This document shows, in pieces, positions 47,001 to 50,000 of a stretch of DNA of 64,000 nt. Origin of the DNA: Escherichia coli (GTDB taxonomy: Bacteria > Pseudomonadota > Gammaproteobacteria > Enterobacterales > Enterobacteriaceae); NCBI RefSeq assembly GCF_030013205.1, contig NZ_CP122648.1, one strand, 5' to 3'. Position 1 is the first letter of the stretch, and each line of letters begins with the position of its first letter. Made by a program: the position numbers.

Positions 47001-50000
47001 TATCCCGATGATTACCGGGGCGACAATCCTGTGCTTCTCCTTTACCGGTTTTGACGGCATCAGCAATCTGTCGGAAGAAACCAAAGATGCAGAGCGCGTG
47101 ATCCCGCGCGCAATTTTCCTGACCGCGCTGATTGGCGGCATGATCTTCATCTTTGCAACTTACTTCCTGCAGCTGTACTTCCCGGATATCTCTCGCTTTA
47201 AAGATCCGGATGCGTCACAGCCTGAAATCATGCTGTACGTTGCGGGTAAAGCGTTCCAGGTTGGCGCGCTGATCTTCTCCACCATTACCGTACTGGCGTC
47301 CGGTATGGCGGCGCACGCAGGCGTAGCGCGTCTGATGTACGTAATGGGTCGTGACGGCGTGTTCCCGAAAAGCTTCTTCGGTTATGTACACCCGAAATGG
47401 CGTACTCCGGCAATGAACATCATCCTGGTTGGCGCGATTGCCTTGCTGGCAATCAACTTCGACCTGGTAATGGCTACGGCGCTGATTAACTTTGGTGCGT
47501 TGGTGGCGTTCACCTTCGTTAACCTGTCGGTCATCTCGCAGTTCTGGATCCGTGAGAAGCGTAACAAGACGCTGAAAGATCACTTCCAGTATCTGTTCCT
47601 GCCGATGTGTGGTGCGCTGACCGTTGGTGCGCTGTGGGTTAACCTGGAAGAAAGCTCAATGGTTCTGGGTCTGATCTGGGCGGCTATCGGCCTGATTTAC
47701 CTGGCTTGCGTAACCAAGAGTTTCCGCAACCCGGTTCCACAGTACGAAGACGTAGCGTAATCTTACAAACCGGATGACATAATCATCCGGTAAATCTCAA
47801 AAAGCCGGAGTTTGTCGCTCCGGCTTTTTTGTGCACAGAAACCCCCCAGCTAGGCTGGGGGTTCCGGAAAGCTTTCAGCTTTAAGCCAGTTATTAAAACC
47901 CCTTTTGATTTGTTAAAACACCTTGCGGTCTGGCAACTGCAAGTGTCAAACAAGAAATCAAAAGGGGGTCCCAATGGGGAACGAAAAGAGCTTAGCGCAC
48001 ACCCGATGGAACTGTAAATATCACATAGTTTTTGCGCCAAAATACCGAAGACAGGTGTTCTACAGAGAGAAGCGTAGAGCAATAGGCAGTATTTTGAGAA
48101 AGCTGTGTGAGTGGAAAAGTGTACGGATTCTGGAAGCTGAATGCTGTGCAGATCATATCCATATGCTTGTGGAGATCCCGCCCAAAATGAGCGTATCCGG
48201 CTTTATGGGATATCTGAAAGGGAAAAGCAGTCTGATGCTTTACGAGCAGTTTGGTGATTTGAAATTCAAATACAGGAACAGGGAGTTCTGGTGCAGAGGG
48301 TACTACGTCGATACGGTGGGTAAGAACACGGCGAAGATACAGGATTACATAAAGCACCAGCTTGAAGAGGATAAAATGGGAGAGCAGTTATCGATTCCCT
48401 ATCCGGGCAGCCCGTTTACGGGCCGTAAGTAACGAAGTTGGATGCAAATGTCAGATCGTGTGCGCCTGTTAGGGCGCGGCTGGTAAGAGAGCCTTATAGG
48501 CGCATTTGAAAAACCTCCGGCTATGCCGGAGGATATTTATTGTTTCAGACGATCTCTTCCGCGTACTGCCAAAGCGCTTTTAACAGCGCCACTTTTTCTT
48601 TATCGTCGGCATACTGCTGCGCCAGCATCTGAATCTCTTCTGCATAGCCTTGTAAAAACTCTGGCGTGAAGACCTGGCGGCGGTGCTCCAGCCAGCGTTG
48701 CTGCTCGGCATAATCCAGCGTCCCCGGGAAGTTGCGTGCCCGATAATTGAACAACAGTTTTTCAATTCGTTTATCAACAAAAGTGATATCCAGTGCCGGT
48801 AAATTACGCGGCTCGGTTTCCAGCACAATTTTCATTGCTGCACGATCTGCGTCACTGAAAAAGCCGTTATAAAGCTGTGCATCCACGTTATCTGAAGGCG
48901 TAAACGGTTCGGCTTCCGCGAATATCGCCACCACTTTTTCACGCACTTGCGGATTTTCACGCAGAATTTTCAGGTTATCGAGGCAATGCTGACGATTAAT
49001 TCCCAGTCGGTCGACATCTTCCGGGCGTAGCGTATTCGCCTGGGCCAGCACCGGACATTTATTGATGTGTACCAGTTTAACCGGAACGGCGGCGTTATCG
49101 CCAAGATCGGCTTTTGCGGTATATAGACGCTCGCGCAATGTGTCGCTATCCAGTTCCAGTAATGGCGAAATGTCTCCTGCCAAATCCACCATAATTACGG
49201 CATTGCGATTTTCAGGATGCCACGCCAGCGGTGCCACCCAGCTTGTATTGCCGCGCCATGCCCCAAACATTCCGGAAACGTGAACCAGGGGTTTCATCTG
49301 CGGAACATCAATCAACGCCATCAGTTTGTGTTTATTACGATGGGTAAAGAGATAATCAAACAGGCGTGGCTGACGCGTTTTTACCAGTTTTGCCATCGCA
49401 ATAGTGGCGTACACATCAGCCATCGCATCGTGTGCGTTGCTATGTTCAATACCATTCGCTTTGGTTAAATGCTCAAGGCGAAAGCTCGGTAGACCGTCAT
49501 CATTTTCAGGCCAGTTTATTCCTTCCGGGCGCAGGGCATAACAGGCACGCATAACATCCAGCAAATCCCAGCGCGAGTTATCATGCTGCCAGCTCCAGGC
49601 GTAAGGATCGTAGAAATTACGATAAAAAACGTTGCGTGTGACTTCGTCGTCGAAACGCACATTGTTGTAGCCCAGAATACAGGTCTTCGGTACGGTAAAA
49701 AGCGAGTGAATACGGGCGGCAAACGCAGCTTCGTTTTCTCCTTTCGCCCGTGCTTCCTGCGGGGTAATACCGGTAATTAATACGGCTCCTGGCTGGGGTA
49801 AATAGTCATCCGCGGGCTTGCAGTAAAAGACTTCGGGTTCGCCGATGACATTGAATTCGCTATCGGTGCGAATGGCTGCGAACTGTGCAGGGCGATCTAA
49901 CGCGGGGTGCGTGCCAAAGGTTTCGTAATCGTGAAACAAAAAGGTAGATTGTTGCTTACCGTCATTCATCATTAGGTTAAATCCGTTATTTCTGCTATCT

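Follow-up and report, generated by a model that had tools for sequence, protein, structure and literature searches.

The left-end hairpin of an IS200C element downstream of plaP in Escherichia coli: an IS200 transcription terminator and presumed transposase-binding palindrome

The GC-rich palindrome located between plaP and sbcB in the 64-kb stretch of Escherichia coli DNA analysed here (the window) is the left-end (LE) hairpin of a copy of IS200C. It corresponds to the transcription terminator already known from IS200 and, presumably, to IP_L, the palindrome bound by the transposase. The favoured reading, to which a probability of about 0.88 is assigned, is that this subterminal palindrome of an IS200C element inserted after the plaP/sbcB T-tract acts both as an RNA barrier and as single-stranded DNA bound by the transposase. 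The dual role is supported, for termination by experiments published on the IS200 of Salmonella and for transposase recognition purely by analogy. The hairpin as such has already been described and is an ordinary part of IS200.

Element boundaries and structure of the left-end hairpin

The features of the left part of the locus, in window positions, are as follows.

47804–47830, no strand assigned: intrinsic terminator of the host, serving both plaP (plus strand) and the convergent sbcB (minus strand), GCCGGAG-tttgtcg-CTCCGGC followed by T6 and preceded by A5 (47799–47803)
47831–48541, plus strand: IS200C, 711 bp, GTGCACAG...GGATATTTATT, delimited by BLAST limits, junction alignments and the RefSeq annotation
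47843–47861, plus strand: LE subterminal hairpin, an 8-bp stem with a TAG loop (consensus 10-bp form 47841–47863), based on folds, Rfam helix 1, covariation and the published function in Salmonella IS200
47899–47967, plus strand: stem-loop of the 5'UTR, based on the MFE fold, the Rfam STnc490 alignment and PMC4513863
47974–48432, plus strand: tnpA, encoding a 152-aa Y1 (HUH) transposase (PF01797; RefSeq WP_000526135.1)

In the RefSeq annotation the genes are ordered yeeY-yoeI-plaP, the IS200C tnpA, sbcB and dacD, and the window is 100% identical to porcine E. coli strains such as K_EC180. The TnpA encoded in the window is identical to WP_000526135.1, which is annotated as the IS200C transposase; its translation contains the HIH motif and matches the Pfam family PF01797 (Y1_Tnp) with 130.7 bits and an E-value of 3.8e-38. 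Membership in the IS200 group is indicated by the single ORF for a Y1 transposase of ~150 aa, a length of ~707–711 bp, the lack of both terminal inverted repeats and a target duplication, a subterminal hairpin at either end, each folding on the plus strand, and insertion in one orientation 3' of a short specific target.

The ends of the element were determined from junctions in nine plasmid and ten chromosomal contexts and from three empty plaP-sbcB sites. BLAST similarity of the plasmid copies to the window placed the left limit at 47816–47829 and the right limit at 48541–48543, and similarity among independent IS200C copies extends from G47831 as the first base to T48541 as the last, with variable sequence beyond T48541. 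The empty plaP-sbcB site, CTCCGGCTTTTTT/GTTTCAGACG (the slash marks the junction), rejoins exactly and without duplication. Taken alone, this site leaves the IS end ambiguous by a few bases owing to a shared TTGT, an ambiguity that is resolved because the other contexts, together with the exact right-end/left-end junction ...ATATTTATT/GTGCACAG... of a tandem IS200C pair in a Klebsiella plasmid, fix the ends. All nine of the further chromosomal copies with both ends anchored are 711 bp long. Since the element spans 47831–48541, the LE hairpin corresponds to IS nucleotides 13–31. The original prediction had been framed with the reservation that the element ends might map elsewhere and leave the hairpin outside the IS; the 19 independent contexts and the three empty sites put it inside.

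These comparisons also bear on the proposal that the hairpin is a host element, either the plaP terminator or a REP-like palindrome, which merely adjoins the IS. It does lie between plaP and sbcB, 83 nt past the plaP stop codon, and the window has other host terminators of comparable strength. However, the empty sites carry only the terminator at 47804–47830 and lack the LE hairpin entirely, and the hairpin accompanies the IS in over 50 unrelated settings spread across plasmids, chromosomes and phage contigs, being found in every other IS200C copy examined. The empty sites and the multi-context comparison rule out a host palindrome or plaP terminator, leaving this explanation with practically no probability. 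The identity of the hairpin with a REP or BIME element was likewise rejected: its 19-mer occurs once in the 64-kb window (chance expectation 0.00), is absent from the empty sites and was found only inside copies of the IS200 group.

Positions 47842–47861 of the window read CCCCCCAGCTAGGCTGGGGG. Because this sequence contains six C against only five G, the stem comprises 8 bp and not the 9 bp originally proposed, for which one G too many had been transcribed; the perfect GC-rich hairpin itself stands. On the plus strand it consists of CCCCCAGC-tag-GCTGGGGG, with arms at 47843–47850 and 47854–47861 and a 3-nt loop, TAG, at 47851–47853, while C47842 and the opposite T47862 are unpaired (a non-canonical pair in the Rfam alignment). 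The 3' end of the hairpin is situated 113 nt before the tnpA start codon (ATG, 47974), in agreement with the predicted distance of ~110 bp. The minimum free energy is -16.4 kcal/mol as RNA and -9.6 kcal/mol as DNA, the latter with z = -2.8 relative to dinucleotide shuffles. The 64-kb window contains six distinct perfect GC-rich hairpins with stems of 8 bp or longer and loops of 3–8 nt, more than expected by chance, as 30 dinucleotide shuffles averaged 0.83. Three of the six belong to the IS200C locus: besides the LE hairpin, these are the terminator of plaP and the right-end (RE) hairpin. The Rfam family RF01405 (STnc490) gives a full-length match on the plus strand at 47841–47964 with 140.6 bits (gathering score 56), and its helix 1 is the LE hairpin in the 10-bp form (aacCcCCaGC UAG GCuGGgGguu).

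Transcription termination at the two ends of the element

In the published anatomy of IS200, a terminator at nt 12–34 is followed by the tnpA transcription start at ~nt 40 and by a stem-loop of the 5'UTR at nt 69–138, which sequesters the Shine-Dalgarno sequence (PMC4513863). The 10-bp form of the IS200C hairpin occupies nt 11–33, or 12–34 if T47830 is counted, and the layout as a whole, including the position of the terminator, agrees with that of Salmonella IS200 within 1 nt. The stem and loop are essentially those of the STnc490 consensus, and the start at ~nt 40, the 5'UTR stem-loop and the 152-aa TnpA are alike in the two elements. The differences consist in the length, 707 bp in Salmonella versus 711 bp for the E. 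coli IS200C variant, and in an A-to-C change at 47842 in the window.

Ellis et al., citing Beuzon et al. 1999, present the inverted repeat at nt 12–34 of Salmonella IS200 as a strong bidirectional Rho-independent terminator directed against impinging transcription (PMC4513863, PMC5435999), which halts ~85% of upstream transcripts (PMC5435999). Sequence identity to this near-identical element suggests that the LE hairpin of IS200C terminates transcription as well. At the RNA level, it would be transcribed only by polymerases coming from outside, because it is located upstream of the tnpA transcription start (~IS nt 40); the strong stem would stop these polymerases, and the stopping of incoming transcription would keep tnpA silent.

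The original prediction named plaP as the source of the read-through to be blocked. A barrier against transcription from outside accords with the published function of Salmonella IS200, but read-through from plaP first meets plaP's own terminator at 47804–47830. This terminator, intact 12 nt upstream of the LE hairpin and unchanged in the three empty sites, folds as DNA with -13.5 kcal/mol (z = -6.6), and IS200C begins right after its sixth T; it is the insertion target and lies outside the IS. Because it is intact directly upstream, the LE hairpin is only a second barrier as far as plaP read-through is concerned.

On the plus strand the LE stem is followed by TTCCGGAAAG, containing two T only and no U-tract, and on the minus strand by a T-rich tail (GTTTCTGTGC in the window, TTTTCTGTGC in the consensus). 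A simple consensus terminator scan recognised the hairpin as terminator-like on the minus strand only; the same scan also missed the obvious plaP terminator, because A/T runs were absorbed into the stem, and it was not relied on for the plus strand. The minus-strand result, the T-rich tail and the published bidirectionality of the IS200 terminator (PMC4513863) could be taken to mean that the hairpin serves mainly to stop leftward (antisense or outward) transcription into plaP, and not inward read-through. Such a function is considered unlikely, since the published termination measurement concerns upstream, inward transcripts (PMC5435999), and art200, a 90-nt RNA covering ~nt 63–152 (PMC4513863), therefore ends before reaching the LE hairpin. 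An art200 ending at the hairpin was rejected, as the 90-nt length puts its 3' end near IS nt 63.

The opposite end of the element carries a second hairpin.

48514–48532, plus strand: RE subterminal hairpin and presumed IP_R, CCTCCGGC-tat-GCCGGAGG with GAAAAA on its 5' side

The RE hairpin folds as DNA with -10.0 kcal/mol (z = -5.6) and is located 9 nt from the right terminus. Its stem differs from the LE stem in two pairs, both compensatory, and it matches helix 1 of STnc490 weakly. The consensus scan found it terminator-like on both strands, with TTTTT following it on the minus strand, where it would terminate sbcB transcripts. A distance of 3 nt separates the right terminus of IS200C from the stop codon of sbcB (48545–48547, minus strand), and the RE hairpin most likely now serves as the sbcB terminator, replacing the displaced host one.

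Candidate transposase recognition of the subterminal hairpins

The transposase of IS608 binds subterminal top-strand hairpins at both ends of the element. Cleavage is directed by the four bases that precede each hairpin foot on its 5' side, and it takes place at C_L within the flanking DNA and at C_R, which is situated 10 nt beyond the foot of the right hairpin IP_R in the 3' direction (PMC3201880). Candidate counterparts of these elements in IS200C are the following.

47837–47842, plus strand: A-run, candidate guide G_L, AGAAAC in the window and AGAAAA in all other IS200C copies; alignment columns 6–9 are invariant or nearly so
48533–48541, plus strand: right-end tail, ATATTTATT, presumed C_R, conserved to T48541 in all copies; its last five bases, TTATT, fit TTNTT

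The motif GAAAA(A) is present 5' of both the LE and the RE stem, and by analogy with IS608 (PMC3201880) the A-run may act as a guide. At the DNA level, the Y1 transposase would bind the LE and RE hairpins as single-stranded top-strand DNA, and the A-run 5' of each stem would act as a guide by pairing with a T-rich cleavage site, which is the TTNTT target in the case of the left end and TTATT in that of the right end.

As in IS608 and ISDra2, both ends of IS200C carry a top-strand hairpin with a short motif on the 5' side of its foot, the right hairpin is ~9–10 nt away from the terminus, and the element inserts 3' of a short specific target without duplication. The hairpins of IS608 are imperfect and contain an extrahelical T, whereas those of IS200C are perfect palindromes that lack such a T and have loops of 3 nt. 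The distance between the left terminus and the stem foot is 12 nt in IS200C versus 19 nt in IS608 and ISDra2, the target is TTNTT instead of TTAC, and IS200C lacks tnpB. A further related element is IS1541 of Yersinia, which belongs to the IS200 group and has ~87% DNA identity to IS200C over the full length; it differs in host and copy number. The LE hairpin of IS1541A is identical to that of IS200C, while IS1541C shows a compensatory change of a C-G to a T-A pair as well as a C.T mismatch in its stem; in Y. enterocolitica IS1541C starts with ATGCACAG, compared with GTGCACAG in IS200C.

A scan of viral contigs yielded 79 loci with TnpA identities of 53–100%, comprising 29 distinct variants of the LE hairpin at the equivalent position. 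Across these variants the position and the 3-nt loop are constant, and the stems consist of many different complementary sequences. Each of the 29 variants retains pairing at all seven inner positions of the stem, and double changes are seen at every one of these (7/10 pairs overall). Pairing was observed in 92.4% of cells, versus 73.7% with shuffled partners and 28–46% with slid partners, the paired fraction being inflated by the use of a hairpin finder in choosing the sequences. Even where the 3' partner is unable to pair, the outer AA of the 10-bp form and the 5' AAAC are conserved in sequence, and this conservation of the 5' A-run is more in keeping with a guide or contact motif than with a helix. 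The RE hairpins of the group share the shape of the LE hairpins and likewise carry compensatory changes, the similarity of the two ends within an element being weakly above permutation (6.18 versus 5.77 of 8 identical, p = 0.03). Covariation of guide versus target was analysed in the diverged CACCGGC subgroup, whose A-run and T-run hardly differ from those of IS200C and whose left end is longer.

The presumed recognition of the LE hairpin by the transposase, as originally proposed, is therefore well supported by analogy and conservation, if indirectly: the analogy with IS608, the covariation, and an RE hairpin of like shape on the same strand all point in this direction. It could alternatively be supposed that the LE hairpin is purely an RNA-level terminator or insulator and that the transposase reads other features of the left end. 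Termination is the sole function with published experimental support (PMC4513863, PMC5435999), the IS200C stem is a perfect palindrome whereas the IS608 palindromes are imperfect (PMC3201880), and covariation of the two ends within elements is weak. This alternative is nevertheless quite improbable: the RE hairpin has the same shape and, on the same strand, lies about as far from the terminus as in IS608, the 5' AAAC stays conserved where it is unpaired, and between the terminus and the tnpA start no conserved subterminal structure besides the LE hairpin was found. Moreover, selection for a terminator alone does not explain the design of the LE, because the plus strand lacks a U-tract. The combination of an RNA barrier with a presumed transposase-binding palindrome remains the preferred interpretation.

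The copy of IS200C in the window deviates from this conserved arrangement at a single base. The position of C47842 is occupied by A in all other IS200C copies examined, and the consensus 10-bp stem is cut to 8 bp by the change; among the 29 LE variants, the window is the sole one with a non-A at alignment column 8. C47842 is common to the porcine lineage (K_EC180, EC556) and is not found in ST131-type genomes. The substitution also changes the putative guide sequence. Because C47842 alters a nearly invariant base beside the stem, transposition may be hampered at this particular left end, and the copy could have lost its mobility.

Insertion downstream of intrinsic terminators

In 43 of 47 contexts, IS200C directly follows an intrinsic terminator. 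Among the distinct left flanks of the IS200C/IS1541 type, 43 of 47 fold with -10 kcal/mol or lower in their last 40 nt, whereas such folding is seen in 6 of the 43 right flanks (Mann-Whitney p = 1.6e-14). The 47 left flanks end in TTTTT (30), TTATT (8), TTGTT (4), TTCTT (2) or another pentamer (3); TTNTT, which is complementary to the A-run, is present in 45 of the 47. The gene upstream of the IS points in the direction of tnpA in nine of the ten chromosomal contexts and ends ~40–65 nt before the element. Diverged members of the IS200 group display the same target pattern. ST131-type genomes also contain IS200C at the plaP/sbcB terminator, 3 nt further right (CTTTTTTGTT/GTGCACAG), which is a second, independent insertion event at this terminator.

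In 1998, Odaert et al. reportedly described IS1541 inserted next to terminator-like stem-loops. The association with terminators has been noted earlier as well (bioRxiv 10.1101/2025.07.22.666184).

A possible, though tentative, explanation is that the transposases of the IS200 group choose their target by structure: a terminator hairpin with a T-rich tail would, in single-stranded form, mimic the element's own right end, which consists of a hairpin and ~9 nt ending in TTATT. The element would then land 3–7 nt after the hairpin, and the LE A-run would pair with TTNTT. If this right-end mimicry is true, it explains the near-constant, co-oriented place of the element just downstream of a gene, and this place would in turn be the reason why the element carries an extra terminator hairpin of its own.

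For the locus itself, the confirmed hairpin mainly validates the annotation of the IS200C ends, the boundaries of which are fixed at 47831–48541. The insertion left the plaP terminator intact, and sbcB most likely ends at the RE hairpin of the IS. The comparative set provides a clean picture of the targeting of terminator T-tracts by the IS200 group, and it is usable to test the guide/target rule of IS608.

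The left end of IS200C

The sixth C of the left-end hairpin (C47842) is a substitution private to the insertion lineage of the window among the IS200C copies compared. Every other copy examined, whether plasmid-borne, chromosomal, located on a phage contig or inserted at plaP/sbcB in ST131, carries A at the matching position, and among 29 IS200-group variants the window alone has a non-A residue in this column. The substitution shortens the consensus stem from 10 bp to 8 bp and changes a run of A residues located 5' of the hairpin, the putative guide motif by analogy with IS608. 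The window holds three further perfect GC-rich hairpins with stems of 8 bp or more, and these are probably host intrinsic terminators:

32282-32302, perfect GC-rich hairpin
35027-35047, perfect GC-rich hairpin
43329-43351, perfect GC-rich hairpin

An IS200-like left end survives as a diverged relic, lacking tnpA, near iss on the E. coli plasmid NZ_CP024140.1. It is about 75% identical to nt 16-145, sits after a GGCCTTTTT tail and retains a compensated hairpin, ACCAGC-cag-GCTGGT.

The match to the Rfam model STnc490 (RF01405) lies on the tnpA-sense strand at 47841-47964 and includes the terminator hairpin, whereas the published sRNA art200 is a 90-nt antisense RNA that ends before the terminator hairpin (PMC4513863). 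The boundaries and strand of STnc490 do not correspond to those of the characterised RNA.

The plaP-sbcB locus

In the ST131-type genomes JJ1886 and HR5-1, IS200C occupies the same plaP/sbcB terminator as in the window, in identical orientation. Comparison of their junctions, CTTTTTTGTT/GTGCACAG ... ATATTTATT/TTCAGACG (slashes mark the element boundaries), with window positions 47825-47835 and 48538-48548 places the ST131-type insertion 3 nt to the right; therefore, this terminator was struck at least two times independently. Once rejoined, the ST131-type flanks have an additional T relative to the three empty sites examined, which suggests that the empty-site allele may be polymorphic.

In the window (47761-48544), plaP lies next to sbcB and the two genes converge, as they do in the genomes with an empty site. 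The flanks fall at two distinct positions in most E. coli genomes (median 2 per genome), and therefore something lies between these genes there; in K-12 this is yeeE-yeeD. The sbcB stop codon is located 3 nt from the right terminus of the element (48509-48547, minus strand), and the right-end hairpin precedes TTTTT when read along the minus strand. Transcripts of sbcB now most likely end inside IS200C, not at the displaced host terminator.

Target sites of IS200C/IS1541-type elements

Elements of the IS200C/IS1541 type are inserted directly 3' of hairpins with T-tracts resembling intrinsic terminators, a pattern derived from window positions 47804-47830 and the left flanks of compared loci L002-L009, L019-L028 and L032-L108. 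Folds of -10 kcal/mol or below were obtained for 43 of the 47 distinct left flanks versus 6 of the 43 right flanks. The consensus of the five target bases is TTNTT, and tnpA is usually co-oriented with the gene upstream of the element. The Klebsiella pneumoniae plasmid CP067780.1 carries a direct tandem of two IS200C copies with the exact junction ...GGATATTTATT/GTGCACAG...; either one copy targeted the right end (TTATT) of the other, or the tandem represents a fixed RE-LE circle junction. The target of these elements resembles their own right end, in which a hairpin is followed by a T-rich tail ending in TTATT.
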